Source: a virus | Taxonomy: Duplodnaviria > Heunggongvirae > Uroviricota > Caudoviricetes | Virus record (IMG/VR): IMGVR_UViG_2529292758_000013 | Strand: one strand, 5' to 3' | Length of the DNA stretch: 37,938 nucleotides | In this document: positions 1 to 35,318 of the stretch, piece by piece | Layout of the letters: every line of letters starts with the position of its first letter | How positions within the stretch are numbered: the first letter of the stretch is position 1 | The notes under the pieces: model-generated | Seen by the model: only the letters and a program-made list of their open reading frames with translations | Database searches by the model: none | What the model was told of the DNA's origin: nothing | Translations under genes and position numbers: made by a program

Positions 1-1053
1 TTACGGGGTAATGCCAACCGCTGCCGCCACTTTGTCGCCACTTGGCAGCGTTGCCAGAGGATTGAAACGGAGCGCCGTTTCCAGATGATCCGGTGCCAGA
101 TGTGCGTAACGCATAGTCATTTTTATATCGTGGTGTCCGAGAATTTTTTGTAAGGCCAGAATGTTTCCACCCGACATCATGAAGTGCGCCGCAAACGTAT
201 GGCGCAGAACGTGTGTGAGTTGACCGCGAGGGAGCACGATAGACGTTTTTTCCATCACGGATAAAAATTGAAAATAGCAGTCTGTGAAGAAATTGAACCC
301 ATCAAGCGCCATGATCTCTTCGTAAAGCTCTTTACTGATAGGGATGCTTCTGTTTTTCTTCCCCTTCGTTCTTACAAAGGTAATTCGGTATTTGGTCACC
401 TGTGAGCGGGTAAGATTTACGGCTTCTCGCCAGCGTGCGCCTGTGCTTAAGCATATCTTAACTACCAGTGCCAGAATTGGGTCCTGACGTTTGCAATCAG
501 CCAGTAATTCAACAATCTGCTCATGGGTAAGCCATGCCATCTCTTTTTCTGCGATGGTGAATTTTCGCATGTTCTCCAGTGGGTTCGGATACGACCATTC
601 GCCCAGGCGGGATAGTTCGCTAAAAACACTACTTAGATAGCTTTGCTCCAGGTTAATGGTGACCGGGCTTGCTCCTTTCTTCCATTTCTCGCTGAAGTAG
701 ATCTCACCTGTCAGGCGTTTATCTCGATAGTGGGCAAACATTTTAGAGGTTAGATCAGTTGCAAGGGGATTGCCCAGAGCGTCAACCATCAGCAGCAATT
801 TGTCATAGACATGCTGCCCAGCAGTCAGAGATTTACCATGTAGTTTGAACCATAGCTCAACCACGTCTTTCAGTGTTCGACGATCCACTGATTCACCCAG
901 CCAGGGCTTTGCTTCGGTTTCTTCCATCGTGTGACGCTCAAAAGCCAGTGCTTCGCCTTTGGTGGCGAATTGTTTACGCACACGACGCCCACTACGTCCG
1001 GCGGGGTAACATTCGCAAAGCCATTTTCCTGTGGTGAGTTTTCGTACAGCCAT
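1..1053 (-). CDS. int: Phage tyrosine integrase (P2/186 family); reading frame runs to the window edge, so the C-terminal end/stop may lie outside
   Basis: Translation from the Met at 1053 (MAVRKLTTGKW...) resembles P2-type Int N-terminus from memory; tyrosine-recombinase boxes present (LSTGARWREA; HVLRHTFAAHF...GHHDIKMTMRYAHL). The 6-frame ORF start at 1131 is probably an upstream extension. Confidence 0.88.
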   Translation of the reverse strand: MAVRKLTTGKWLCECYPAGRSGRRVRKQFATKGEALAFERHTMEETEAKPWLGESVDRRTLKDVVELWFKLHGKSLTAGQHVYDKLLLMVDALGNPLATDLTSKMFAHYRDKRLTGEIYFSEKWKKGASPVTINLEQSYLSSVFSELSRLGEWSYPNPLENMRKFTIAEKEMAWLTHEQIVELLADCKRQDPILALVVKICLSTGARWREAVNLTRSQVTKYRITFVRTKGKKNRSIPISKELYEEIMALDGFNFFTDCYFQFLSVMEKTSIVLPRGQLTHVLRHTFAAHFMMSGGNILALQKILGHHDIKMTMRYAHLAPDHLETALRFNPLATLPSGDKVAAAVGITP

Positions 1054-1132
1054 AAAAAATGCCCTCCAGTGGAGAGCATTTTTACTGTATATATAACCAG
1101 TGTCAATGTATGAATTTGTATAGCCATACATA

Positions 1133-2464
1133 TCACTGAAGTAAAAAAACTTTTAAAGCATCTTTCACAATATTTGTTGGTTCACCAATACCGCCACCAC
1201 CTTTTAAAAAATGGTATTCACTCATTTCTGCCCATTGTCTTTTTATATTTTCCTCAGCAGGTAAAAGAGATGAGTTTTCAGATAAGTATTTGTAAACTAT
1301 TCCAAATATAGCATATTCATAATTATCTACATTATATTCACTTGTTTGATATGAAAATTTAGATAAACCAAACAATTTCATGATTGATTGAGCATCAACT
1401 TTATCTTCAAGAAAGTTGAGAGCTAACTCTCGGTTAAAAGTGTAGATTATTATCGCTAGAGTCCTGTAATAACAATATCCATAAATATATTTGTTGCTAA
1501 TTTTGTCGCCTGATAGTAGTTGGTATATTTCAACATATCTAGCAAGTGTTTCAACCTCACGTAATGATAATTTTCTACTTTCAATGAACTGTAAGAAAAT
1601 ATCTTCGCTGGCTTCTACTGCAGCGGTCAGCCTTTCAGATTGCTCACATAGCATCATCCAATGATTTTTGGAAGTTAAAGTGTCATTATAATTATCTTCC
1701 TTAAAGGTAACAGGAAGGCTGTATGTAAATTTTATAAATTTGTCAAGATAACGGTTGGAGTCTACAGAAGAGCCATAGATATGATTTATGGATGCTTTTA
1801 GTTGAGTTGTGTTTGCAATTAATAAAAAGTTAATGTTTTTTATATCAAAAACATGTTTTATATTTTCAATAATAGAAATGGCAAAACTAGGCTTACATCT
1901 GTCTAACTCATCTATAATTATTGTTAGTTTACTTTCTCCAGCTAATTTGGTTAGTACTTCTTTTAGAGCAAGAACGTTCTTTTGTGCCTCGATATGATCT
2001 TCTAACAGAGCCTCGATGGTTCCATCGATAGCTGAATTTGCAGCGTCTTTGATAACCTCTTCAAATTCCTCATTAATTTCATCCGCATTTTGTTTTAATA
2101 CCCAACCAGCACCAGCTTTGAGTACAGTCTTAAGTCCGAATCTGAGGGCTGGCAATGCCTTAGATATTAATTCCTTTTTTTCATCGCTATTATATAGAGC
2201 TGCAATTGCGGCCATTATTGTAAGTATGGGAGCATCGTTGTGATCTTCAGTAAAAGCATCTATATAAACTACTTTATGATTGGTCGAGTTTATTTCAATT
2301 AAGGATGCTAACTTTTTTGAAAACTCTGTTTTTCCAGTCCCCCAGTCCCCATCTATGACCATAGGTGAAACAGGAATATTAGACTCTAGCAAACTTATTA
2401 TTTTTTCTGCAATGGCTTTTCTTTTATATTCATCACGTATATCGAAAGTTATATCTGTGCTCAT
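1133..2464 (-). CDS. KAP-family P-loop NTPase (accessory cargo gene)
   Basis: Walker A GDWGTGKT and KAP-type Walker B IIIDELDRC seen in translation; SD-like AAGGA upstream of ATG at 2464; visibly AT-rich compared with the phage backbone. Confidence 0.75.
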   Translation of the reverse strand: MSTDITFDIRDEYKRKAIAEKIISLLESNIPVSPMVIDGDWGTGKTEFSKKLASLIEINSTNHKVVYIDAFTEDHNDAPILTIMAAIAALYNSDEKKELISKALPALRFGLKTVLKAGAGWVLKQNADEINEEFEEVIKDAANSAIDGTIEALLEDHIEAQKNVLALKEVLTKLAGESKLTIIIDELDRCKPSFAISIIENIKHVFDIKNINFLLIANTTQLKASINHIYGSSVDSNRYLDKFIKFTYSLPVTFKEDNYNDTLTSKNHWMMLCEQSERLTAAVEASEDIFLQFIESRKLSLREVETLARYVEIYQLLSGDKISNKYIYGYCYYRTLAIIIYTFNRELALNFLEDKVDAQSIMKLFGLSKFSYQTSEYNVDNYEYAIFGIVYKYLSENSSLLPAEENIKRQWAEMSEYHFLKGGGGIGEPTNIVKDALKVFLLQ

Positions 2465-2477
2465 TCATATTTCCTTA

Positions 2478-2660
2478 TTATTTGATGCATGTTTTTTTGG
2501 ATTTACTGATGGTTCCATCATTGCAAACAAATTTTCCATCAGAGGTACAGTGAGAGACACCTCCCTTTTTCCCAGAACAAGGATAATTTTTAGCATAGGT
2601 AGTTAGTGGGTTTAATAACAAAGAGCATGATAAAACCACAAAAAAAAACTTACCAAGCAT
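2478..2660 (-). CDS. Small secreted Cys-rich protein (60 aa) with predicted signal peptide, co-oriented with and 14 bp upstream of the KAP NTPase
   Basis: Hydrophobic N-terminus ([23 protein letters not shown]) followed by a 37-aa mature part with 4 Cys; strong SD GGAGGA 4 nt before ATG at 2660. Confidence 0.55.
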
Positions 2661-2675
2661 AGTTTCCTCCAGGTA

Positions 2676-3332
2676 TTATCTAACATACTTAACTGTTAAG
2701 CTTATAATTTTTCCAATTATTTCAACATCTTCTATCTTGCACTCGAAGGCTCTGTTTCCACCTTCAACGAAAATTCTTCCACCGGGTAAACGAGTGATGT
2801 CGCGGATTGTTATTTCGCCATCAATACTTATTACCCATTTACCATCACGTATATCATCAAATTCTTTATCACAAATAAATTCAGAATTGTTATCTGTGAT
2901 GACAAAAGGTTTTTTAAACGTAGAGGGTAGAAATCCCTTATCAAAAATATAAAAACCGTCTTCCTGCAATGCTCCATCAGACAATAAATATTTTACTACT
3001 TCTATAGTATTTGTATTTGCTGATGCTTGCTTTGAACCATGCCCTGTTGTTAGCCAATTAAGCGAGGTACCCGTTTCAAGGGCGCACTGGATTACCCAAT
3101 CTGCCGGAAAAATATCACGCATATAACGCGTTGCCATGGTGCTCTTAGAAACACCTAAATGATCACAGAGAGCCTGACGGGTACCGAACCCGTATGCTTC
3201 AACCAAACGTTCTATGGCTTTCTTACCGCCGCTATTGAAATCCACAAATCCTCCAAAGAAATCCAAAATTCGTTGACAGATTCCAAAAGCGATCTTAAAG
3301 TTGAACCAGAAGTCTTCTTTTGGAGCCTTCAC
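2676..3332 (-). CDS. cI: Phage immunity repressor, 186 CI-like (start codon uncertain, true start probably downstream of 3332)
   Basis: HTH-like segment (ALCDHLGVSKSTMATRYMRD...CALETGTSLNWLTTGHG) resembling the 186 CI N-terminal domain from memory; sits between int cargo and the Apl/CII operon on the opposite strand. Confidence 0.7.
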   Translation of the reverse strand: MKAPKEDFWFNFKIAFGICQRILDFFGGFVDFNSGGKKAIERLVEAYGFGTRQALCDHLGVSKSTMATRYMRDIFPADWVIQCALETGTSLNWLTTGHGSKQASANTNTIEVVKYLLSDGALQEDGFYIFDKGFLPSTFKKPFVITDNNSEFICDKEFDDIRDGKWVISIDGEITIRDITRLPGGRIFVEGGNRAFECKIEDVEIIGKIISLTVKYVR

Positions 3333-4175: not shown

Positions 4176-4409
4176 ATGCTGACGAAAGAACCATCATTTG
4201 CATCGCTGCTGGTAAAACAAAGTCCGGCAATGCACTACGGTCACGGCTGGATTTATTTACCTTGTGGGAAAAAGTGGCATCCAAGTTTTGAATTACAACC
4301 CCGGCAACAGGCTTACCGGGGAAGAAATAAAAAGCGATTCCTACAAAGATTTATGGTTAACGTGGCAAACAACCTGCGAACCAAGCGAAAAGTTTTTCTT
4401 GGAAGCTGA
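4176..4409 (+). CDS. Hypothetical early protein (77 aa); its N-terminal segment is duplicated at 4996-5055
   Basis: SD GAGGTG 3 nt before ATG 4176, directly after the cII stop; C-terminal part overlaps the reverse-strand ORF 4357-4815. Confidence 0.4.
   Translation: MLTKEPSFASLLVKQSPAMHYGHGWIYLPCGKKWHPSFELQPRQQAYRGRNKKRFLQRFMVNVANNLRTKRKVFLGS
4193..4252. repeat. 60-bp direct repeat, copy 1 (59/60 identical to 4996-5055)
   Basis: ATCATTTGCATCGCTGCTGGTAAAACAAAG[T/C]CCGGCAATGCACTACGGTCACGGCTGGAT read at both positions. Confidence 0.9.
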
Positions 4410-4815
4410 GGTTTACATCGTCAACCCGACCACAGGCAATAGCAGCTCTTTTGTAGGCAGGGTTTAACAAAGATCCGAATGTTGTGGAGTCAGAGTGATG
4501 CAAAGCTTTCAATTTTTGTGCAATGAACTGTGGAGACAATTCATCCTCGGCGTAAAGCAACTCACCATATTGTCGGCTTTGTACGCTTGCTCGTTCCGCA
4601 ATAATAGCTGGTTGCCATACAAGTTGGATTGTTGCGATTACAACAACAGGAAAAGCGAACAACCATTCCAGACCTGTATTAGCAAATACAGCTGTTCCGC
4701 TTATAAGTTGGATTGCTGTCATTAATTTATCAGCTCGACCATGGAACGTTGCTGTCATTAGTTCAAGGTAATAACAGTAGTGTAATTGGAAGTATTCGGA
4801 GCTTTGTTTAGTCAT
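4357..4815 (-). CDS. Hypothetical protein with a hydrophobic (probably membrane) segment; reverse-strand cargo inside the early region
   Basis: 152-aa ORF on the opposite strand to the early operon; hydrophobic stretch LISGTAVFANTGLEWLFAFPVVVIATIQLVW; bounded by the 60-bp direct repeats. Confidence 0.45.
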   Translation of the reverse strand: MTKQSSEYFQLHYCYYLELMTATFHGRADKLMTAIQLISGTAVFANTGLEWLFAFPVVVIATIQLVWQPAIIAERASVQSRQYGELLYAEDELSPQFIAQKLKALHHSDSTTFGSLLNPAYKRAAIACGRVDDVNLSFQEKLFAWFAGCLPR

Positions 4816-5801: not shown

Positions 5802-6035
5802 ATGCGTAATATTGAAACCCTCACGACTAAAACCGGACCGGATGATGCAGGGCTTAATATTTTACTGACAGAGGCTCGTCTGGAAGAACGCCGGGCAAGG
5901 GCTGAAGCAATGGCAGCTCGCCTTGATAGCCTGGCGTGTCATATCACATCCCGCCAGCTAAACCACGTCGAAGCGGCAGAACTGCTGCGTGTGACTGCTG
6001 AAGCAATCCAGAACGAAGCGCAGGAGATCCACTGA
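5802..6035 (+). CDS. Hypothetical early protein (77 aa)
   Basis: SD CAGGAG 8 nt before ATG 5802; stop overlaps the next start (TGATG). Confidence 0.5.
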   Translation: MRNIETLTTKTGPDDAGLNILLTEARLEERRARAEAMAARLDSLACHITSRQLNHVEAAELLRVTAEAIQNEAQEIH

Positions 6036-6262
6036 TGGCTGATGCAATGGATCTCGTACAGCAGCGCGTTGAAGAAGAACGCCAGCGTCATATCCGTGCT
6101 GCCCGCGCCAAAACGCCGGGCGTATCCCGCGTGCTTTGCATTGAGTGCGAAGCACCAATTCCGCCAGCACGACGTCGCGCCATTCCGGGTGTGCAGCTTT
6201 GCATTACCTGTCAGGAAATCGCAGAGCTGAAAGGCAAACATTACAACGGAGGTGCTGTATGA
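6035..6262 (+). CDS. TraR/DksA-family C4 zinc-finger protein
   Basis: CIECEAPIPPARRRAIPGVQLCITCQ: CxxC-N17-CxxC spacing typical of TraR/DksA-type zinc fingers found in P2-like early operons. Confidence 0.75.
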   Translation: MADAMDLVQQRVEEERQRHIRAARAKTPGVSRVLCIECEAPIPPARRRAIPGVQLCITCQEIAELKGKHYNGGAV

Positions 6263-7116
6263 GCACCATCCTGAAATGGGCGGGTAATAAAACCGCCATT
6301 ATGCCGGAACTGAAAAAATACCTTCCTGCTGGCCCGCGACTGGTTGAACCTTTCGCGGGTTCTTGTGCTGTGATGATAGAGACGGATTACCCCAGCTATC
6401 TTGTTGCGGATATTAATCCTGATTTAATCAACCTCTATAAAAAGGTTGCTGCTGATTGCGAGGCGTTTATATCTCGTGCCAGAGCTTTATTTGAGGAAGC
6501 AAACAGGGAGGTGGCTTATTACAACATAAGGCAGGAGTTTAATTACTCCACTGAAATTACTGATTTCATGAAAGCGGTATATTTCCTGTATCTCAATCGT
6601 CATGGTTACCGTGGGTTATGTCGCTATAACAAGAGCGGGCATTTCAACATTCCCTACGGGAATTATAAAAATCCGTATTTCCCTGAAAAAGAAATTCGCA
6701 AATTTGCAGAAAAAGCCCAGCGAGCAACGTTTATCTGCGCCAGCTTTGATGAAACGCTGGCGATGTTGAAGGCGGGGGATGTGGTGTATTGCGATCCGCC
6801 TTATGACGGTACGTTTTCCGGCTATCACACTGATGGCTTCACTGAGGATGACCAGTATCACCTGGCATCCGTTCTTGAACATCGATCATCTGAAGGTCAT
6901 CCGGTCATTGTTTCTAACAGTGACACATCCCTGATTCGTTCGCTGTATCGCAATTTCACTCACCACTACATCAAGGCAAAACGCAGCATCGGCGTGTCGG
7001 CTGGCGAGAGTAAATCTGCAACAGAAATCATTGCTGTTTCCGGGGCGCGCTGCTGGGTGGGATTTGATCCTTCGCGTGGCGTGGATAGTTCTGCTGTGTA
7101 CGAGGTGCGTGTATGA
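6259..7116 (+). CDS. dam: DNA adenine (N6) methyltransferase, Dam-like
   Basis: DPPY catalytic motif ([10 protein letters not shown]), N-terminal KWAGNK and FAGSCAV SAM-binding-like motifs; ATG at 6259 overlaps the upstream stop (ATGA). Confidence 0.85.
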
Positions 7117-9527
7117 GTCATGACGATATGAGCAACTCTAGCGGCTTTAACGAGGCCGCTGCAGCATTTTCATGGAACGGCCCGAAAAAGGCCATTAACC
7201 CTTATCTGGACCCGGCGGAAGTTGCGCCGGAGTCTGCACTTTCAAACATGATCACTCTGTACGCTGCCGATAACGAGCAGGAACAGCTGCGCCGCGATGC
7301 ACTGAGTGAGCAGGTCTGGGAGCGTTATTTCTTTAATGAATCCCGTGATCCTGTCCAGCGCGAAATGGAGCAGGATAATCTCATTAGTCGGGCAAAGCTG
7401 GCGCATGAGCAGCAGCGTTTTAACCCGGACATGGTCATTCTGGCGGACGTCAGCGCCCAGCCCACCCACATCAGCAAGCCGCTGATGCAACGTATCGAAT
7501 ACTTCAGCAGCCTGGGCAGGCCAAAGGCTTATTCCCGCTATTTGCGTGAGACGATTAAGCCATGTCTGGAGCGACTGGAGTATGTACGCGACAGTCAGCT
7601 ATCCGCTTCTTTCCGTTTTATGGCAAGCCATCAAGGGCTTGAGGGCCTGCTGATCCTGCCTGAAATGAGTCAGGATCAGGTAAAACGCCTGTCCACCCTG
7701 GTAGCAGCGCATATGAGCATGTGTCTTGAGGCCGCTTGTGGTGATTTGTATGCCTCCGATGACGTTAAGCCAGAAGAAATCCGCAAGACATGGGAAAAGG
7801 TGGCAGCGGAAACCCTGCGTCTGGATGTTATCCCGCCTGCGTTTGAGAAACTCCGTCGGAAAAGAAACCGCCGCAAACCCGTGCCCTATGAACTCATACC
7901 GGGTTCGCTGGCACGTATGCTTTGCGCCGACTGGTGGTATCGAAAATTGTGGAAGATACGTTGCGAATGGCGGGAAGAGCAGTTGCGTGCTGTCTGCCTG
8001 GTCAGCAAAAAAGCATCTCCCTATGTCAGCTATGAAGCAGTGACGCATAAACGTGAGCAGCGCCGCAAGTCGCTGGAGTTTTTCCGTTCTCATGAACTGG
8101 TGAACGAAGACGGCGACACGCTGGATATGGAAGACGTGGTAAACGCCAGCAGCAGCAACCCGGCGCACCGCCGCAATGAGATGATGGCCTGTGTTAAAGG
8201 TCTGGAGCTTATCGCGGAAATGCGTGGTGACTGCGCCGTTTTCTACACCATTACCTGTCCGTCACGTTTCCATTCTACGCTCAATAACGGCAGACCAAAC
8301 CCAACCTGGACAAATGCGACGGTAAGACAAAGCAGTGATTATCTGGTCGGCATGTTTGCTGCATTTCGTAAGGCGATGCACAAAGCCGGATTGCGCTGGT
8401 ATGGCGTGCGGGTGGCTGAGCCGCATCATGACGGCACAGTTCACTGGCACCTGTTGTGTTTTATGCGCAAAAAAGACCGCCGCGCCATTACTGCTTTGTT
8501 GCGTAAGTTTGCCATTCGTGAAGACCGCGAGGAGCTGGGTAATAACACGGGGCCACGCTTTAAGTCTGAGCTGATAAACCCGCGCAAAGGAACGCCGACA
8601 AGCTACATCGCGAAATATATCAGCAAGAACATTGACGGGCGTGGTCTGGCTGGCGAGATCAGCAAGGAAACGGGTAAATCTCTGCGTGATAACGCTGAAT
8701 ACGTGAATGCCTGGGCGTCTTTGCATCGTGTTCAGCAATTCCGCTTCTTTGGTATTCCGGGACGTCAGGCTTACCGTGAACTTCGCTTGCTGGCTGGTCA
8801 GGCGGCAAGGCAACAGGGTGACAAAAAAGCAGGTGCGCCGGTACTGGATAACCCGCGTCTTGATGCCATTCTGGCTGCTGCTGATGCTGGTTGTTTTGCC
8901 ACCTACATCATGAAGCAGGGCGGCGTACTGGTTCCCCGTAAATATCACCTCATCAGAACCGCTTATGAAATCAACGAAGAGCCGACCGCCTATGGCGATC
9001 ACGGTATTCGTATTTATGGCATCTGGTCACCCATTGCAGAGGGCAAGATCTGCACTCATGCAGTGAAGTGGAAAATGGTTCGTAAAGCCGTTGACGTTCA
9101 GGAGGCGGCAGCCGACCAGGGCGCTTGCGCCCCTTGGACTCGTGGCAATAACTGTCCCCTTGCTGAAAATTTGTACCAACAAGGGAAAGACAAATCAGCT
9201 GATGGAGATACCAGAACGGATATCACCCGTATGGATGACAAGGAGTTGCACGATTACCTGCACAGTATGAGCAAAAAAGAGCGCCGGGAACTGGCAGCAA
9301 GATTACGCCTGGTTAAACCGAAACGACGTAAAGACTACAAACAGCGAATTACAGAGTATCAGCGTCAGCAGCTCGTCTATGAACTGAAGTCCAGAGGATT
9401 TGATGGCAGCGAGAAAGAAGTCGATTTGCTCCTTCGCGGTGGCAGTATTCCATCAGGAGCAGGCCTGCGTATCTTCTATCGGAACCAGCGTCTGAAGGAA
9501 GATGATAAGTGGCGGAACCTGTATTAA
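7113..9527 (+). CDS. A: Replication initiation endonuclease, P2 gene A type (rolling-circle Rep, HUH class)
   Basis: HUH motif ([10 protein letters not shown]) and tyrosine motif [12 protein letters not shown]; 804 aa; ATGA overlap with dam; position after the early operon. Confidence 0.88.
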
Positions 9528-9879: not shown

Positions 9880-10113
9880 ATGCGCATTGAAATAATGATC
9901 GATAAAGAGCAGAAGATTAGCCAGTCTACCCTGGACGCCCTTGAATCCGAGCTTTACCGCAATCTGCGCCCCCTGTATCCCAAAACGGTAATTCGTATCC
10001 GCAAAGGTAGCTCTAACGGTGTGGAACTTACCGGATTGCAACTGGACGAAGAAAGAAAACAAGTGATGAAAATTATGCAGAAAGTGTGGGAAGACGACAG
10101 CTGGCTGCATTAA
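9880..10113 (+). CDS. DinI-family protein (77 aa)
   Basis: MRIEIMIDKEQ...LRPLYPKTVIRIRKGSSNGVELTG...QKVWEDDSWL resembles DinI (MRIEVTIAK...ETWESADDWF) from memory; SD GAGGTG before ATG 9880. Confidence 0.65.
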   Translation: MRIEIMIDKEQKISQSTLDALESELYRNLRPLYPKTVIRIRKGSSNGVELTGLQLDEERKQVMKIMQKVWEDDSWLH

Positions 10114-10319
10114 GAAACGTTGCCCCCAAGAGGATTCATTCGAATGGGGGCTAGTTTGGGCAATGAGTGAAATAAGGCGTAAGGTGGGTGGTCATTTTGA
10201 TAAATGATCGTCCGCTTTGTGCCAGAAGCGAACGTTTCTTCTGCTATCTTTCGTCAATTAACGAATGGCAGACTAATTTGCAACGGATAATCTGAATTTT
10301 GTAAGATTATGGGTATTCC

Positions 10320-10325
10320 TATAAT
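10320..10325 (+). promoter_or_regulatory. Candidate sigma70 -10 hexamer (TATAAT) in the AT-rich leader of the second KAP-like gene
   Basis: Perfect TATAAT at 10320-10325 with a TTGTAA -35-like hexamer 15 bp upstream; not verified. Confidence 0.3.
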
Positions 10326-10434
10326 ATTTACCAATAATAACCTTACAATGTACACTACCTATTGAATTTTCCATAGTTGGCCTTTGGCTCTACTTACCAT
10401 CTATGTTTATGTATTTTATCAAAATGGACTAAAA

Positions 10435-12327
10435 ATGCACAATACGTACATCAAAGACTATATAGAATATTACCTTAGCCTTAAAACTGAACCTCAATAC
10501 GCCATTATGCTTAAAGGTGCTTGGGGATCAGGTAAAACTTGGTTCATTGAACGAGTTCTTGAAGAATATAAGCAAAAGCATTCAGAGTTCAAATTTCTTA
10601 AAGTGAGTTTGTATGGCGTCAACTCTATTGAGCAGATTGAAGATGAGTTCTATCGTCAACTTCATCCTATTCTATCAAACAAAGCCCTTATCTTTGGTGC
10701 AAATGTACTAAAAAATACGCTTAAGGCTACTTTCAAGATCGATTTCAATGGCGATAATAAGTCTGACGTAGATGTCAATGCCAGTGTCCCCACTATTAAT
10801 CTTAGCGACTTTAGCAGAGAACCAGATGGTTTTGTGCTGGTCTTTGATGATATCGAGAGAGCTGGTATAGATTTACCAATCTTATTTGGATATATAAATC
10901 ACTTTGTAGAAGTAAACGGATACAAAGCGATCCTGGTTGCCAATGAAGAAGAAATAATCAACAGAGAAAAGCGAATAAATAATGATGATGAGAAATCTAG
11001 CAGTGAATACATAAGAACAAAAGAAAAGCTTGTAGGTAAAACATTTGAAGTAACGTCAGATTTACATAGTGCTTGTAATATTTTCTTGGGCGTAATTAGT
11101 AGTTTACACGTAGCTAATATATTTAAAGAAGATATGCAGACCATAGAACACCTCTATGTGTCGGCGAAATATAATAATCTAAGACATTTGAGGCAGTTCT
11201 TTCTTGATGTACAACGCATCATTTCCCTTTTGGGAGATAAATATGTCAGCAACGACGATTTTATGAAAGTATTTTTCCAGCAGTTATTAATTTTCTCGAT
11301 GGAGTACCGGGGAGGGAACCTTAACTACGAGGATTTCAATTCAATCGGCAATGTAAATTATAGTATGTTTTTAGATAAAGGGCGTGCCAAAACTAAGTAT
11401 GATATGATCGTCGAGAAATATTCATCACCTGTATTAACCGAGACGTTACTGGATGGTGCGTACTGGAGAGAGCTAATCTGTGATGGAAAGGTAACGCATG
11501 ATCTTCTCGCTCAGCTGGATATTACGCGATTTTTTAGAAGCACCGATGCCCAAGCATGGGAGTATTTGTGGAACTATCGAGAACTTAATGAAACTATTCT
11601 TAATGAACAGTACGCCATTGCCAAGGATAATCTATTTTCAGGTAAGATCACTTCCTTAGGTGAACTCCTGATGACCGCGAGTATTTTGCTGGCATTGGCG
11701 AAAGAAGGTTTAACCACAGATGCTGTTGATGACATTATAAATGAGACAAAACATCATATAGATATTTATTACAATGGATTAGGACCTGAAGATATACATC
11801 AGGAGTATGCGCAAAGACATTATAATGAGTTAATGGCATGGCGTGGCTTTGGTTTTCTTGACAGGGATAGCGATGAATTCAAACTCATTATTGAGCATAT
11901 TAAGATAGCGCAGAAGAAACGGTTTGATGAATCAATTCCGGAGTTTGCATTGAAGTTCAGCGATGAGTTGCAAAGAGGAAATTTATCGTTTGTATCTGAA
12001 TTGTGTCATTCTAATAATAGGCAGCTAAATCTTCATAACGTGCCTTTTTTACACTTGGTTTCTCCTGAAGTTTTCATTGAAAGCTATAGGAAACTTGACC
12101 CAATCATCATGAGGAAACTGGCATTTAGCTTGAGGGATCGTTATTCTGATAGGGATGCCAGAACCAGACTGACCGAAGAATACAACTGGTTGATTAGCCT
12201 AAAAGAGATAGCTGTAGATTTCACTCAAAACGCAGCCAATAACTCCTTTCAGGTTTTTCATGTAAAGTTTTTTATTGACTATGCACTAACTAATGCAATC
12301 AAATTATTTACTGAGGGAACTGATTAA
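10435..12327 (+). CDS. KAP-like P-loop NTPase, second divergent copy (630 aa from ATG 10435; an in-frame TTG at 10384 is possible)
   Basis: Walker A GAWGSGKT and Walker B-like VLVFDDIER in a layout parallel to the 1133-2464 protein; AT-rich; followed by a GC-rich hairpin terminator. Confidence 0.7.
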   Translation: MHNTYIKDYIEYYLSLKTEPQYAIMLKGAWGSGKTWFIERVLEEYKQKHSEFKFLKVSLYGVNSIEQIEDEFYRQLHPILSNKALIFGANVLKNTLKATFKIDFNGDNKSDVDVNASVPTINLSDFSREPDGFVLVFDDIERAGIDLPILFGYINHFVEVNGYKAILVANEEEIINREKRINNDDEKSSSEYIRTKEKLVGKTFEVTSDLHSACNIFLGVISSLHVANIFKEDMQTIEHLYVSAKYNNLRHLRQFFLDVQRIISLLGDKYVSNDDFMKVFFQQLLIFSMEYRGGNLNYEDFNSIGNVNYSMFLDKGRAKTKYDMIVEKYSSPVLTETLLDGAYWRELICDGKVTHDLLAQLDITRFFRSTDAQAWEYLWNYRELNETILNEQYAIAKDNLFSGKITSLGELLMTASILLALAKEGLTTDAVDDIINETKHHIDIYYNGLGPEDIHQEYAQRHYNELMAWRGFGFLDRDSDEFKLIIEHIKIAQKKRFDESIPEFALKFSDELQRGNLSFVSELCHSNNRQLNLHNVPFLHLVSPEVFIESYRKLDPIIMRKLAFSLRDRYSDRDARTRLTEEYNWLISLKEIAVDFTQNAANNSFQVFHVKFFIDYALTNAIKLFTEGTD

Positions 12328-12390
12328 CATTTTGTTGATTAACATAGGTAATATTATTAGAAGTACTAGACATGGTCAGTAAAATTATTA

Positions 12391-12420
12391 AAGTCCGCTT
12401 CGCTCGAAGCGGACTTTGTG
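12391..12420. terminator. Hairpin terminator after the KAP-like gene, T-rich on both sides
   Basis: AAGTCCGCTTCG...CGAAGCGGACTT perfect inverted repeat followed by TTTGTGCTTT. Confidence 0.5.
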
Positions 12421-12612
12421 CTTTATAAAAACGAGAGTTTTGTTTTTCAAGCGGTCATTCGGTTACGGGATTTCACTTCCCCCGTAAGTGCATGACTATG
12501 CCGCATGAGATCGCATGATCGTTTGCGGATCGTTTTTGCCAAGGTCCGCCAGAACTGGCGGGCTTTTGCGTAGATCATGCAGGTGCATGAAAACCACTAC
12601 ATAAAGTGGGCA

Positions 12613-12850: not shown

Positions 12851-13522
12851 ATGGCTTTCAGAGCGGAAGAAGCAGCAGCATCGAATTTCGAAAATGCTTA
12901 CAGATATCTAGTTCCACAAGGTTCAAATCAGGAGATGCGTTCGAAAGTTAGGGCGAAGCTCAAAGAAATTGTTGAAGAATGTGGGCCAGTAGTGGATGGG
13001 TATCCAGCATGGCATCCTTTTTTGCTGGAAAGAGATAAAGCTATTTGGGCGCCTATGACTCCCAATAATACTCCTAGCTTTAAATACCTGGACCACACGG
13101 TCTATTTCAGGAACGGCATTCTTACCTGTCCTTATGGTCATGGGGTTGATGAATTTATAGCTGGTATAAAACGTCTAAAGCACACGGATGCCCATTTCTC
13201 TATTGAGAAGATTGATGACGTTGTGCTTTATAATGACAACGCCGTCCCGTTGTTAATAAAATGCCATTGGCTTATTTCGGAAGATATGGAAGAGGATGGC
13301 ACCATTCCAGCAAAAGCAGCAATTGGATTGATGCTTGAAAGCGAGGTTCCTAACTGGCGGCATGCAGTTTATTGTGAAAATTGGGAAGATATGCGCGGGC
13401 AGTTGATGGGATATCCGCACGGTGCCAGATCATCTCTATTTGTTAATCAGCAGACAGGACAGAAAATGAAAAACTTCTGGAATCAGCTGATTAAGACCGG
13501 AATTCTTGGGGAAGAGCGATAA
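12851..13522 (+). CDS. Hypothetical protein (223 aa), cargo gene between cos and the portal gene
   Basis: Uninterrupted ORF with candidate promoter TTGATA-N18-TATATT at 12809-12838; no motif recognised; hairpin after the stop. Confidence 0.55.
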   Translation: MAFRAEEAAASNFENAYRYLVPQGSNQEMRSKVRAKLKEIVEECGPVVDGYPAWHPFLLERDKAIWAPMTPNNTPSFKYLDHTVYFRNGILTCPYGHGVDEFIAGIKRLKHTDAHFSIEKIDDVVLYNDNAVPLLIKCHWLISEDMEEDGTIPAKAAIGLMLESEVPNWRHAVYCENWEDMRGQLMGYPHGARSSLFVNQQTGQKMKNFWNQLIKTGILGEER

Positions 13523-14624: not shown

Positions 14625-16390
14625 CAAAAAATCTCCACAATATTGCTGGTATTGGCGGACTCGCCCTGCAGCGGTTCGTTAAACAGTGCGTGCATGGTTG
14701 CCCAGGCCAGATCGGCATGGCTGGCTTCTTCGCTGCGGCTGGCTTCATAGGTCGGGCGGTTGCCGCTGGCGGTGGTGGCGCGACGGATTGCCATAAATGA
14801 CTGCGCTATGTCGGTGTGTCCGGCGTCAAACTCCAGACGGCGGTGACTGATAATGTCGTAGGCCTTGAGTACCAGGGCGTTTTTAACGTTGGGGTTGTAG
14901 ACAAACTCCCGGACGGCTGGAAAAAACGCTTTCACGTTCTCGTAAACCCCGTGACCAACGCCGGTTGAGTCGATACCGATATAAGTCACGTTGTACTGTT
15001 CGGTAAGTTTTTTGATGGCGTCAGCCTGGGCGCGGAAGTCCATCCCGCGCCACTGGTGACGCTCAAGAATGCGGAACTTACCACCCGGCACGGCTGGCGG
15101 TGCCACCACCACGCATCCAGCGCTGTCGCCGTTTTGCGTACCTTTTGCCGGGTCATAACCGATCCACACTTCGCGCCAGCCAAACGGGCGCAGTGCCAGT
15201 GCATGAAAGTCGGTCCAGACTTCCCAACTGTCCACCATGCACGCCTGCAGCTCGCTGAGCGGAAACACGGACGCGAGATCGTCCACAAACTCGCACATCA
15301 GCAGGTTCTGGTATTCGTCCGGGCTGTACTCCATGCGTAGCTGGTCGAGGTCGAACAGGTTACAGCCGCCGCGCACCGCATCTTCCACGGTGACTATCTG
15401 GCGGTACTGCCCGTCTGCGCACAGCAGGCCGGGGGCCAGATTGCTGTGGGACAGGTCGATGTCCACCTTATCGGCTTTGTTGCGCCCACGGTTGAACAGC
15501 GCACCGGACCAGAACGGATAAGCACTGTGTGTCAGACTGGATGGCGTGGAAAAATAGGTTTGTCGCCATTTTTTGTGAATAGCCATACCGGAAGCCACTT
15601 TGCGCAGCTCCTGGAATTTCGGTATCCAGAAATATTCATCCAGATACAGGTTGCCGTGGTAACTCTGGGCCGTGCGGGCATTGGTGCCGAGGAAGTAAAG
15701 CGTGGCCCCGTTAGGAAGCACCATCGGATCGCCTTTCAGCTCCACCTCCACTTCTTTGGCAAAGTCGATGATGTACTGTTTAAAGACGTGGGCCTGAGCC
15801 TTGCTGGCAGAAAGGAAAATCTGGTTACGCCCGGTCAGCAGGGCGTCAATCAGGGCTTCACGGGCAAAGTAAAAGGTCGCGCCGATCTGGCGTGACTTCA
15901 GCAGGTTGCGGATGCGGTTGGTTTTTCCGGCTTCCCACCAGTGGCGCTGGTAGTTGAACATAGAGGAATTGAAGATTTCTTCCAGTTTCTCAATCTGTTC
16001 ATCGGTGAAAACATTCTTTTCCGGCTGACGACGTGGGCCTTTGTTGCGGTTGGCAACGTTAGGGTTTAAGTCGGCTTCGTTGCCGCCATTGTTAAACTTG
16101 CCGATCCGCGCGTGGCGCTCAGACTGGCGTGCCAGCAGGTCAATTTCTTTGAAATCTTTCCCTTCTTTGTGCTCCTTCATAATGAGCTGGCAGTAGCGTG
16201 CGGCGGTGGTGAGCTGCATCTGATCCAGCGGCCCATAGTCACCCCACTTGTCGCGTTTTTTCCAGCTGTGAACGGTTGCAACTTTCTCGCCCAGCATTTC
16301 AGCAATGCGGGCGACGCGGTATCCCTGAAAGTACAGCAGCATGGCCTGCCGACGGGGATCGAGGTCTGCGGGTGTCAGTGTGGTGTTCAT
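14624..16390 (-). CDS. P: Terminase large (ATPase) subunit, P2 gpP type
   Basis: 588-aa ORF with terminase-like segments (SRQIGATFYFAREA..., LYLDEYFWIP); divergent from the O-N-M-L operon as in P2. Confidence 0.88.
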   Translation of the reverse strand: MNTTLTPADLDPRRQAMLLYFQGYRVARIAEMLGEKVATVHSWKKRDKWGDYGPLDQMQLTTAARYCQLIMKEHKEGKDFKEIDLLARQSERHARIGKFNNGGNEADLNPNVANRNKGPRRQPEKNVFTDEQIEKLEEIFNSSMFNYQRHWWEAGKTNRIRNLLKSRQIGATFYFAREALIDALLTGRNQIFLSASKAQAHVFKQYIIDFAKEVEVELKGDPMVLPNGATLYFLGTNARTAQSYHGNLYLDEYFWIPKFQELRKVASGMAIHKKWRQTYFSTPSSLTHSAYPFWSGALFNRGRNKADKVDIDLSHSNLAPGLLCADGQYRQIVTVEDAVRGGCNLFDLDQLRMEYSPDEYQNLLMCEFVDDLASVFPLSELQACMVDSWEVWTDFHALALRPFGWREVWIGYDPAKGTQNGDSAGCVVVAPPAVPGGKFRILERHQWRGMDFRAQADAIKKLTEQYNVTYIGIDSTGVGHGVYENVKAFFPAVREFVYNPNVKNALVLKAYDIISHRRLEFDAGHTDIAQSFMAIRRATTASGNRPTYEASRSEEASHADLAWATMHALFNEPLQGESANTSNIVEIF

Positions 16391-21901: not shown

Positions 21902-22346
21902 ATTGCAGAAGGTGGACGACTGGCTGAGTGCCTTGCTGGCGAATCTGGAGCCAGCCGCAAGAAGCCGCATGATGCGCCAGCTGGCGCAGGAACTGCGCCG
22001 GACACAGCAGCAGAACATCAGGATGCAGCGTAATCCTGATGGCAGCAGCTATGAACCGCGAAGGGTAACAGCACGTAGTAAAAAGGGGCGCATCAAACGT
22101 CAGATGTTTACAAAGCTTCGCACCACAAAATACCTGAAAACTGCCGCCAGCGCCGATTCTGCCAGCGTGCAGTTTGAAGGTAACGTACAGCGTATTGCCC
22201 GTGTTCACCATTACGGCCTGCGTGATCGCGTCAGTCGCAAAGGACCGGAGATCCGTTACGCAGAGCGCAAATTGTTGGGTTTCAGTTCAGTTTCAATAAA
22301 CGTAGTCCATGATATTATATATTCGAGGATATCCAATTTAGATTGA
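21894..22346 (+). CDS. S: Tail completion protein S
   Basis: 150-aa ORF (GTG start overlapping the R stop); the last 15-20 codons lie in AT-rich sequence. Confidence 0.8.
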   Translation: MAELQKVDDWLSALLANLEPAARSRMMRQLAQELRRTQQQNIRMQRNPDGSSYEPRRVTARSKKGRIKRQMFTKLRTTKYLKTAASADSASVQFEGNVQRIARVHHYGLRDRVSRKGPEIRYAERKLLGFSSVSINVVHDIIYSRISNLD

Positions 22347-22354
22347 AAGTTTGA

Positions 22355-22379
22355 AATGGCAGATGCTCTGCCATTTTTT
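22355..22379. terminator. Hairpin plus T-run between convergent S and the reverse-strand cargo gene
   Basis: ATGGCAGA-tgc-TCTGCCAT followed by TTTTTT. Confidence 0.5.
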
Positions 22380-22381
22380 AT

Positions 22382-23134
22382 TTAGATACTGAGATTTTTT
22401 TTACATAATAGTATAAATTCACAGTACATGTTATAGATTTTAGTCGCACATCTGTTAGCTTTTTTTATGGTTTCTATCTTTTCAGGGGGGAGGCTCAATA
22501 AGGCAATCTCTCTGTCGCTGAGCATTGAAATAAACTCGCTGCTGCCTAAATACCCGGAGTTGCAGGCTAAAAAATAATTAAAGTTAGTTAACTCTTTGTG
22601 TAGTTCGTTAGATTTTATTTCTATTTCATTATCATGAAAATGATGTATGGCCTTTCCCCATTCATGGCAGTATGTTGTCATGTCTTTAAGGTTTGAGTCA
22701 TGAAATCTATTGCCAAAGTCATGGCTTTTTAGAAAGTCTATTGAGTTTGAATCTGGTGGTAATAATTTTATAAACTCTTTATATAGATTAATGTCAGAGT
22801 TCCTTTGTCTTTCTTTCTTTTCTCTGTTTTCTTTAATTTTAATACTGTCAAAGAACCATTCTGGCACTTTACTTAATAAGTTATAGGTTAACCCCAAAGC
22901 AATTAGAGTGATGGCTACCATCGTGCTTGGATTACCATTATCTATTTTTATTATATCAATATCTGCATTGAATTTTTTATTATATATATCAATTATAAAA
23001 TTAAGTGCCATGAGATAATATGGAATTGGTAGCGCAATTATGCTTAGCCCAGTTATAACTAAAGCCCAAGTTATTTTATTACTAAACTCAGGAAATATTA
23101 CATTGATTATTTTTTTAACAATATACCTTTTCAT
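22382..23134 (-). CDS. Hypothetical protein with two N-terminal transmembrane helices (250 aa), AT-rich cargo gene between tail genes S and V
   Basis: SD AGGGAG 7 nt before ATG 23134 (minus strand); TM segments ITWALVITGLSIIALPIPYYLMALNFII and MVAITLIALGLTYNLL; long Lys/Asn/Ile-rich soluble domain. Confidence 0.6.
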   Translation of the reverse strand: MKRYIVKKIINVIFPEFSNKITWALVITGLSIIALPIPYYLMALNFIIDIYNKKFNADIDIIKIDNGNPSTMVAITLIALGLTYNLLSKVPEWFFDSIKIKENREKKERQRNSDINLYKEFIKLLPPDSNSIDFLKSHDFGNRFHDSNLKDMTTYCHEWGKAIHHFHDNEIEIKSNELHKELTNFNYFLACNSGYLGSSEFISMLSDREIALLSLPPEKIETIKKANRCATKIYNMYCEFILLCKKNLSI

Positions 23135-23162
23135 TACTTAACTCCCTGAAAAATATACTAAT

Positions 23163-23180
23163 TGTGCCATGATTCATACA
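23163..23180 (+). promoter_or_regulatory. Late promoter element TGT-N12-ACA upstream of V
   Basis: TGTGCCATGATTCATACA read directly; centred about 55 bp upstream of ATG 23227. Confidence 0.5.
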
Positions 23181-23226
23181 TTTTTATCTACTGGTTGATA
23201 ATGTGTGGGGGATTTATGTTAGTGAC

Positions 23227-23805
23227 ATGAACGCACAGCTAACTGAAATCATGCGCCTTATCACCAACCTGATCCGCACAGGGGTAGTCACCGAAGTAGA
23301 CAGGGAAAACTGGCTTTGCCGGGTGAAAACGGGCGACCTTGAAACCAACTGGATCAGCTGGCTGACGCTGCGTGCCGGGAATGCCCGCACATGGTGGCGA
23401 CCATCGGAAGGTGAGCAGGTGGTGCTGCTGAGTCTGGGAGGCAATCTGGAAACCGCCTTTGCGCTGCCCGCTGTCTATTCGAATCAGTTCGCACCACCGT
23501 CGACGTCGGCGGACGCCTGCGTGACAGAACATCCTGACGGTGGCTGGTTTGAATACGAACCCGCCACCGGGCGCTGGTATGTCAGGGGCATCAAATCAAT
23601 GGTCATTGAGGCTGCTGACAACATCACCATGAAAACCAGTGAGTTTGTACTGGAGGCTGACCGCACGCGCATTAACAGCGAAGTGGTGATCAATGGTGGC
23701 GTTACCCAGGGCGGCGGAGCGATGAGTTCTAACGGGATCGTGGTTGATGCGCATCAGCATACTGGCGTCCTGAAAGGCGGCGATACAACCGGAGGCCCGG
23801 TATGA
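23227..23805 (+). CDS. V: Baseplate spike/assembly protein V
   Basis: MNAQLTEIMRLITNLIRTGVVTEVD...WISWLTLRAGNARTWWRPSEGEQVVLL resembles P2 gpV from memory. Confidence 0.85.
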   Translation: MNAQLTEIMRLITNLIRTGVVTEVDRENWLCRVKTGDLETNWISWLTLRAGNARTWWRPSEGEQVVLLSLGGNLETAFALPAVYSNQFAPPSTSADACVTEHPDGGWFEYEPATGRWYVRGIKSMVIEAADNITMKTSEFVLEADRTRINSEVVINGGVTQGGGAMSSNGIVVDAHQHTGVLKGGDTTGGPV

Positions 23806-35082: not shown

Positions 35083-35162
35083 CGCTGCCGCCATTTTGTC
35101 GCCATCGTTAAAAAATAGTGCTTCTAACATCATGATTTTAAACAGCATAAATTTCAGGCAAC

Positions 35163-35205
35163 AAAAAACCCATCAACCTTGAACCGAAATGGCGGGGTTG
35201 ATGGG
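35163..35205 (-). terminator. Rho-independent terminator of host ybjL
   Basis: Inverted repeat CCCATCAACC...GGTTGATGGG with a T-run on the minus strand (A-run 35163-35168 on plus). Confidence 0.6.
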
Positions 35206-35318
35206 CTCCACAAAATGGGGACATCAAAGAAAAGCAGTGGCACTAATTAAGACTGGTGCCCTGCGGAAAAGTTCTGCGGTTGTGCAAAAAAAATTTCATT
35301 TTCAGGGCAACTTCAGTT

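Follow-up and report, generated by a model that had tools for sequence, protein, structure and literature searches.

What is a strongly AT-rich gene doing on the reverse strand between the tail genes S and V of a P2-like prophage? The question arises from IMG/VR record IMGVR_UViG_2529292758_000013, a stretch of 37,938 nucleotides (the window), which is a P2-like (Wadgaonvirus-type) prophage of Escherichia coli; over the stretch tested, it is identical to the prophage of strains NGF-1 and NC101, and its integration site adjoins ybjL. The S-V interval holds a 250-codon open reading frame (ORF), here called the cargo gene, which a preliminary description had read as a membrane-anchored moron product of abortive-infection (Abi) or superinfection-exclusion type. 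This reading stands in part: the ORF is an accessory reverse-strand gene in the position known as the orf30 slot, and a defence role is supported indirectly, by the contents of that slot, by domain fusions of the relatives and by the genomic islands in which these occur, whereas superinfection exclusion is disfavoured. On balance, the cargo gene probably serves defence of some kind, and the best overall explanation, which we hold with about even confidence, is a single-gene Abi-type anti-phage defence, carried as one allele of an S-V cassette, in which a membrane effector would be combined with a cytoplasmic sensor.

The ORF is a real gene (coordinates of all features are collected in Table 1). 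Its GC content is 0.27-0.31 against 0.55-0.60 in the flanks (0.307 for the cassette, 0.565 for the body of S and 0.573 for V), and the ORF list, the GC profile and the sequence all bear out the initial observation of a 250-residue antisense ORF, far more AT-rich than the tail genes and with a Shine-Dalgarno sequence of its own. At the composition of the cassette, 250 codons without a stop would occur by chance with a probability of about 6e-10. Comparison with an 81%-identical allele gives a ratio of nonsynonymous to synonymous substitution rates (dN/dS) of 0.18, which corresponds to purifying selection. The gene was found in 20 of 5,426 complete E. coli genomes, as 16 near-identical copies and 4 copies of the 81%-identical allele; the prophage backbone is carried by about 1,074 of the same genomes, and the cargo gene is missing from about 98% of these backbone prophages. 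It is also missing from Escherichia phage 500465-1, which has flanks about 97% identical to those of the window.

This phage, which is free of the insert and has an S-V gap of 68 nt, was used to define the boundaries of the acquired DNA by alignment; many E. coli prophages likewise have a 68-nt gap with flanks about 95-97% identical. Homology to 500465-1 breaks inside S, after TACGCAGAGCG at about position 22268, and resumes exactly at the ATG of V at 23227, which both RefSeq and the alignment with insert-free relatives identify as the V start, rather than the GTG at 23203 further upstream. The acquired or variable stretch therefore spans 22269-23226, a correction to the segment 22347-23226 delimited before. 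As had been noticed earlier, the last codons of S lie in the AT-rich DNA: these are the 26 codons at 22269-22346, with a GC content of 0.295. The GC-rich hairpin that follows S, positional equivalent of the annotated P2 terminator at 9397-9433, has fold z-scores of -3.76 on the forward strand and -4.42 on the reverse strand. The stem is stable on both strands and also stands at the 3' end of the cargo transcript, there with a poor U-tract; the U-tract is good on the forward strand only. An Rfam scan of the cassette found no RNA.

We then compared eleven loci that differ in the contents of the slot, ten of E. coli type and P2. Each cassette has its own S tail after the conserved ...RLLG, variable in sequence with the amphipathic pattern kept, as well as its own terminator region and its own region upstream of V. 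From this alignment, the cassette at 22269-23226 appears to be composed of the S tail, the O-operon terminator, the reverse-strand cargo and the Ogr-dependent V promoter. "Inserted" would accordingly be too simple a word, as the S tail and the V promoter region seem to be replaced by functional versions belonging to the cassette itself.

The putative V promoter region also bears on how the cargo gene may be controlled. The geometry of the TGT-N12-ACA dyad at 23163-23180 is that of the annotated activator-binding site of the P2 PV promoter, and each of the ten E. coli-type cassettes or empty slots (10/10) has such a dyad at -64 or -65 relative to the V ATG, in surroundings that are otherwise unrelated; the activator site annotated in P2 itself deviates from the exact N12 pattern. 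The sequence CATGGCACAAT is invariant across six homologous cassettes. Since the cargo ATG is only 29 nt away from the box and CATGGCACAAT is invariant, any cargo promoter would have to share sequence with the Ogr box. The candidate that we propose, TAGATA-18-CACAAT, does overlap it and scores 8/12, under the threshold of the scan. Ogr bound at this box would be in the wrong position for activating the cargo promoter and is likely to occlude it, so that the cargo promoter is probably occluded once the late genes of the prophage come on. The gene would thus be expressed in the lysogen and shut off during the late phase of its own prophage.

Two further observations concern these promoters. In the window, TGT-N12-ACA dyads occur at 16379, 16437, 23163 and 27843, upstream of the divergent P and O operons, of V and of FI, and so account for all four late promoters of P2 type that depend on Ogr. 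In the P2 record NC_001895, transcription of the V operon is annotated to begin with base 1 of the V coding sequence (10308); given the same spacing between box and ATG in the window, the V mRNA would be leaderless, or the true start of V would lie further downstream.

The position of the gene is informative in itself. Published work counts the orf30 position among the three regions that vary in P2-like phages (PMC3091744; see also PMC6823313), and defence hotspots have been described at the A-Q (old/tin) locus, at the Z/fun locus and on the int/cI side (PMC9122126, PMC9519451, bioRxiv 10.1101/2024.10.15.618418). In a 2026 preprint, defence genes are placed "within the late genes" and "downstream of GpL", and the S-V slot is not resolved there (10.64898/2026.02.27.708500). 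To compare S-V intervals, we searched the 5,426 complete genomes with both flanks joined, which gave the backbone in 1,074, and took an evenly spaced sample of 58 junction-spanning hits, ranked and not random, in which cargo is named by its RefSeq annotation. About 29 of the sampled slots are empty, about 27 are occupied and 2 are ambiguous. The cargo includes AIPR, an AAA ATPase with DUF4435 (a PARIS-type domain pair), other AAA ATPases, TIR, SIR2 and GmrSD, together with a P-loop NTPase, FRG, DUF2971, DUF5677, DUF6216, PcfJ and several hypothetical proteins. Direct inspection verified the S-V position for FRG, TIR, GmrSD, AIPR, DUF4435 with AAA, SIR2 and DUF6216, all on the reverse strand except TIR. 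The interval is thus variable among P2-like phages and occupied in about half of the cases, with defence genes among its contents: the S-V slot is a cargo hotspot, rich in recognisable defence genes.

These other cargoes (AIPR/AbiH-like, PARIS-like AAA with DUF4435, SIR2, GmrSD, TIR, FRG and DUF6216) share with our gene an identical position and mostly the reverse orientation, and their cassettes likewise have their own S tail, their own terminator and an Ogr box at -64/-65, whereas the proteins are unrelated to the one studied here. The TIR cargo of the same slot was considered as a possible carrier of the same C-terminal domain and was rejected (hhalign, 0.25%). The DUF6216 cargo occurs in BL21-type laboratory strains too. 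In P2 itself, Orf30 (NP_046770, nonessential) occupies the same slot and strand, in agreement with the earlier statement that the S-V interval is a known moron position. It resembles our cargo protein in being AT-rich in its gene, similar in size (261 residues) and multi-spanning, and its gene also lies between the O-operon terminator and the PV activator site; in contrast, Orf30 has transmembrane (TM) helices at both ends. Homology between the two was rejected, with an hhalign probability of 0.24% against the family profile and nothing from tblastn over the phage records.

What the gene encodes was addressed by searches at several depths. The cargo protein has zero matches in Pfam-A, NCBIfam and PHROGs, and no match in PDB sequence searches, including those with family-alignment queries, or by tblastn in 50,697 phage records (P2 among them) and in the PLSDB plasmids; a literature search for WP_000833215 found nothing. 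A word-indexed search of 5.8 billion proteins returned three clusters only, at 99%, 75% and 50% identity, and a repeat with the deep alignment added almost nothing. Far more came from HMMER run exhaustively on 1.84 billion cluster representatives: 468 relatives at E<=1e-3, of which 82 reach E<=1e-10. The 468 represent clusters at 50% identity and range from Enterobacterales to Aquificota. About 45 are full-length look-alikes of about 250 residues. One or two TM helices precede the C-terminal domain in most relatives, many of which are 170-210 residues long with the domain as their last ~145 residues; a minority have a TIR_2 domain, a TIR domain of CAP12/Pycsar type or a Schlafen (SLFN)/AlbA_2 domain in front of it. 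Across 110 members, the shared domain lies outside every Pfam family, a few relatives match uncharacterised PHROGs, and the PADLOC matches among the 110 (ThsB-like, PDC-S66, PDC-S35 and SpbK among them) map to the fused TIR or SLFN parts, never to the shared domain. As judged from these searches, the cargo gene appears to lie outside any described family.

The relationship with the fusion proteins does not depend on single sequences. The profile of four close sequences aligned with a fusion-only profile with an hhalign probability of 99.65% (E 4e-25, 166 columns), and a motif common to the family and the fusions can be recognised by eye, D..LF..F...PS...FL..HDFG..F...W..AE..F.D..LE...LN. Homology of the C-terminal domain to the domain fused to TIR and SLFN effectors is, by these profile comparisons, a robust assignment.

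The protein is rich in isoleucine (13%), leucine (10%), lysine (10%) and asparagine (9%), the same residues in which its C-terminal part is rich. In the hydropathy profile, residues ~22-46 and ~69-90 stand out as hydrophobic, in agreement with the two N-terminal TM helices recognised at the outset. The membrane module is conserved across the family (P15 in 90% and G29 in 89%; dN/dS 0.13), and the conserved residues of the C-terminal domain are D114, L117, H138-D139-F-G, W159, F166 and N227. An AlphaFold2 (AF2) model made with a 110-sequence alignment, which replaced a poor run on 4 sequences (pLDDT 59.9), has a mean pLDDT of 90.4, about 98 over residues 100-250, and is all-helical. Its helices include residues 20-34, 37-55 and 71-124, the last of which joins TM2 and the first helix of the bundle in one continuous helix. 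Structure comparison of the C-terminal bundle gave no specific structural relative; an Rx4-6H motif on a four-helix fold, as in HEPN proteins, was not found, and Pfam gave no match to SAVED, cNMP-binding, SLOG, SLATT, effector-associated (EAD) or death-like domains in the cargo protein or its family. The N-terminus is basic and the stretch after TM2 very basic, which by the positive-inside rule places both in the cytoplasm, and the existence of TIR and SLFN fusions without TM helices points to a cytoplasmic location for the shared domain as well.

Relatives of the gene occur in several settings. Homologues with 43-50% identity occupy the S-V slot of other P2-like prophages, in a metagenome-assembled genome (MAG; locus L004, with the same AT trough), in a Pseudescherichia MAG (L006) and in Buttiauxella (L007), and in a more distant P2-like phage with 45% GC a relative adjoins S (L033). 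L006 and L007 are P2 remnants by ybjL from which different large deletions have removed the capsid and tail genes, and both keep the cargo homologue intact with its control region (around 5950-6750). Another relative lies downstream of gene A, in the old/tin hotspot (L036), others are found beside the integrase of P2-like elements, one is in a P2 remnant beside HNH and reverse transcriptase genes, and a lambdoid prophage of Proteus has one in its nin region. Further members stand beside type I restriction-modification genes, and an SLFN fusion beside HigBA and a nucleotidyltransferase pair. A TIR fusion neighbours Shedu and other TIR genes (L013, a contig of JGI 3300034026). In GCA_009857885.1 (contig region 1-10690, L039), a family member lies between the DUF1156 methylase-like and DUF499 ATPase genes of a BrxR-SNF2-DUF1156-DUF499 operon, apparently inside another putative defence system. 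No conserved neighbour gene was seen across 15 or more contexts; three or four contexts were short or uninformative. The L013 region is a dense TIR-rich island: its phage-like segment 5871-17079 contains NinG genes, Shedu SduA_C, three TIR_2 genes, one of them with the C-terminal domain, and pentapeptide-repeat/TIR genes.

TM helices, TIR domains and Schlafen domains are established effector modules in bacterial immunity (as in CBASS, Pycsar, Thoeris and related systems). The fusions are therefore most simply read as a shared bundle that senses or switches, joined to an N-terminal module that acts as the effector. In the mechanism that we propose, with somewhat less than even confidence, the cytoplasmic helical domain would respond to a cue of infection as sensor or switch. 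The conserved two-TM module, to which it is joined by one continuous helix, would be the effector and would damage or depolarise the inner membrane, giving protection against other phages by abortive infection or growth arrest. The gene is probably self-contained, since it is flanked directly by phage core genes and does not co-vary with other cargo of the prophage, and the defence would then consist of this single gene, expressed from the prophage in the lysogen.

Such a protein would resemble the TM effectors of signalling systems (CBASS/Pycsar 2TM and 4TM, TM-type Thoeris, SLATT) in the logic of an N-terminal TM effector with a cytoplasmic regulatory domain, and in that the regulatory domain of its family is alternatively joined to TIR-type effectors. 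It differs from them in that the gene stands alone, with no cyclase or other signal-producing partner and none of the SAVED, cNMP-binding, SLOG or SLATT domains, and in that its C-terminal domain is a helical bundle for which no specific structural relative came up. With the TIR single-gene and candidate systems (ThsB-like, PDC-S66/PDC-S35, SpbK-like) it is connected through those relatives of the C-terminal domain that carry these TIR types at the N-terminus, whereas the cargo protein has no TIR domain, and it is the TIR halves of the relatives alone that the PADLOC models recognise.

Several points weigh against the Abi-type proposal. Guilt by association with a hotspot is no proof, as such slots also hold non-defence cargo, and one sampled short relative lies in an ordinary chromosomal neighbourhood. 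The models of known and candidate systems in PADLOC-DB 2.0 gave the cargo protein only a spurious match (E=0.035), and a consensus scan upstream of the cargo ATG found no minus-strand sigma-70 promoter. The enterobacterial clade is without three polar residues, E163, H237 and Q238, that most of the family keep. In addition, the topology (N-terminus inside, two TM helices, C-terminal domain cytoplasmic) is itself predicted, from the positive-inside rule and the soluble fusions.

The first two of these points also speak for the alternative that survives best, an accessory gene outside immunity, with a role in lysogenic conversion, host physiology, envelope modification, modulation of the phage's own lysis or injection, or anti-defence; several S-V cargoes are likewise plain hypotheticals or DUFs. 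We consider this unlikely, but the most serious of the alternatives. Homology to a tail or lysis component, the finding named at the outset as one that would count against a defence moron, is not seen in PHROGs or Pfam, and the gene is probably not needed for morphogenesis or lysis, as it lies antisense to the late operons and nearly all sister prophages lack it. The TIR and SLFN fusions of the same domain and the recurrent defence-island contexts point instead to conflict systems, and the retention of the gene intact in decayed prophages suggests that the host, rather than the phage, profits from it.

HK97 gp15, T4 Imm, P22 SieA/SieB and lambda RexB are membrane superinfection-exclusion morons, of which HK97 gp15 is located among tail genes. 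By analogy with T4 Imm or HK97 gp15, the cargo product could be an inner-membrane protein that blocks the entry of incoming phage DNA while the cell is not killed. It is, like them, a small predicted inner-membrane protein of a prophage moron, among tail genes and probably made in the lysogen, and P2 Orf30 of the same slot is multi-spanning as well. We regard exclusion as quite improbable nonetheless. No sequence match connects the cargo protein with these morons, and its large conserved domain of about 150 residues, predicted to be cytoplasmic and also present in soluble TIR and SLFN proteins, which would be unable to block entry at the membrane, favours an Abi/effector-type function with intracellular sensing. 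Relatives in chromosomal defence islands and operons argue in the same direction.

A slightly weaker candidate is a partner-dependent module, in which the helical domain would be an EAD-type adaptor that docks the membrane effector onto a sensor encoded elsewhere, such as a host protein or one of the KAP NTPases that the prophage carries. All-helical domains with interchangeable effectors are reportedly typical adaptors in NTPase-centred conflict systems, as Kaur, Burroughs, Iyer and Aravind are said to have described in 2020, and the prophage encodes two KAP NTPases matching PDC-S20 and PDC-S49. Against this, every S-V cassette with this gene has it alone, with phage core genes on either side, none of the 15 and more contexts offers a constant partner, and EAD and death-like domains are missing from the Pfam results. 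A KAP NTPase partner was rejected because the 14EC029 prophage, which has the same cargo family and different cargo in its other slots, has no KAP NTPase there. Finally, a chance ORF or decaying remnant in foreign AT-rich DNA would fit the absence of any family annotation and the three clusters of the word-indexed search, but is very improbable: the stop-free length, the dN/dS, the 468 family representatives, the AF2 model (pLDDT 90) and full-length homologues at 75%, 50% and 43% identity in the same slot exclude a non-functional ORF.

Other parts of the window are also AT-rich. Such DNA fills three cargo slots of this one prophage (int-cI, A-Q and S-V), with islands at 951-3150 and 10051-12550 around the two KAP NTPase genes. 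In the A-Q hotspot, an ORF of 223 residues at 12851-13522 (+), without Pfam or PADLOC match, adjoins the PDC-S49 NTPase and may belong to that candidate system as its second component or be cargo of its own. In the early operon, two fil-like genes enclose an antisense ORF of 152 residues at 4357-4815 (-), which matches no family, recurs in the 14EC029 prophage and may be another small moron. The RybB small RNA (Rfam RF00110, 105 bits) lies at 35160-35238 (-), about 80 nt past ogr, from which it follows that the right end of the prophage abuts rybB; this suggests an attachment site at or adjoining rybB.

Table 1 Features of the S-V cassette, its flanking genes and the KAP NTPase genes of the prophage (positions in the window)
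Feature	Position	Strand	Evidence
KAP-family P-loop NTPase, between int and cI	1133-2464	-	PADLOC candidate PDC-S20, E 2e-171
KAP-family P-loop NTPase, A-Q old/tin hotspot	10384-12327	+	PADLOC candidate PDC-S49, E 1e-160
Gene S (tail completion/virion morphogenesis), 150 aa	21894-22346	+	PF05069, 3.6e-40; RefSeq annotation
Cassette-specific S tail, last 26 codons	22269-22346	+	GC 0.295; amphipathic pattern as in all S tails after conserved RLLG
GC-rich hairpin, predicted O-operon intrinsic terminator	22353-22377		11-bp stem and T-run on + strand
Cargo gene, 250-aa predicted membrane protein, WP_000833215.1	22382-23134	-	ATG start; RefSeq hypothetical protein, same coordinates; 753 bp
C-terminal helical bundle, ~145-150 aa, residues ~100-250, predicted cytoplasmic	22385-22837	-	AF2, conservation, fusions, hhalign
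N-terminal membrane module, residues 1-90	22865-23134	-	basic N-terminus, conserved FPEFSNKITW, TM1 ~22-46, TM2 ~69-90
Shine-Dalgarno GGGAG, cargo gene	23142-23146	-	7 nt before ATG; with the ATG kept in six homologous cassettes
Candidate sigma-70 promoter, cargo gene	23161-23190	-	inferred; -35 TAGATA 23185-23190, 18-nt spacer, -10 CACAAT 23161-23166; overlaps Ogr box
TGT-N12-ACA dyad, putative Ogr/Delta activator box of late promoter PV	23163-23180		-64 from V ATG, centre 55.5 nt upstream; 29 nt from cargo ATG
Gene V (baseplate spike), first in V operon	23227-23805	+	PF04717 and Apex motif; RefSeq start; alignment

Taken jointly, and tentatively, the helical bundle may be a previously unrecognised infection-sensing or switch domain that drives interchangeable effectors (2TM/1TM, several TIR types, Schlafen/AlbA_2) and defines a widespread single-gene defence family, and the S-V slot may be a fourth rich defence hotspot of P2-like phages, filled by cassettes that would be complete plug-in units. 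The slot, cited until now mainly as a "variable region", becomes a cheap place for mining new systems. The cassette's own S C-terminus, terminator and precisely spaced Ogr box would explain how cargo is exchanged in an essential late-gene cluster without breaking it, and the overlap with the Ogr box hints at an inbuilt control by which the cargo would be silenced once its own prophage turns lytic. If the proposal is true, the cargo gene would be a compact immune system of 753 bp with a new sensor domain, in hosts (NC101 and NGF-1) that are widely used mouse-gut E. coli models, and the natural domain swaps among TM, TIR and SLFN modules would allow sensing to be separated from killing.

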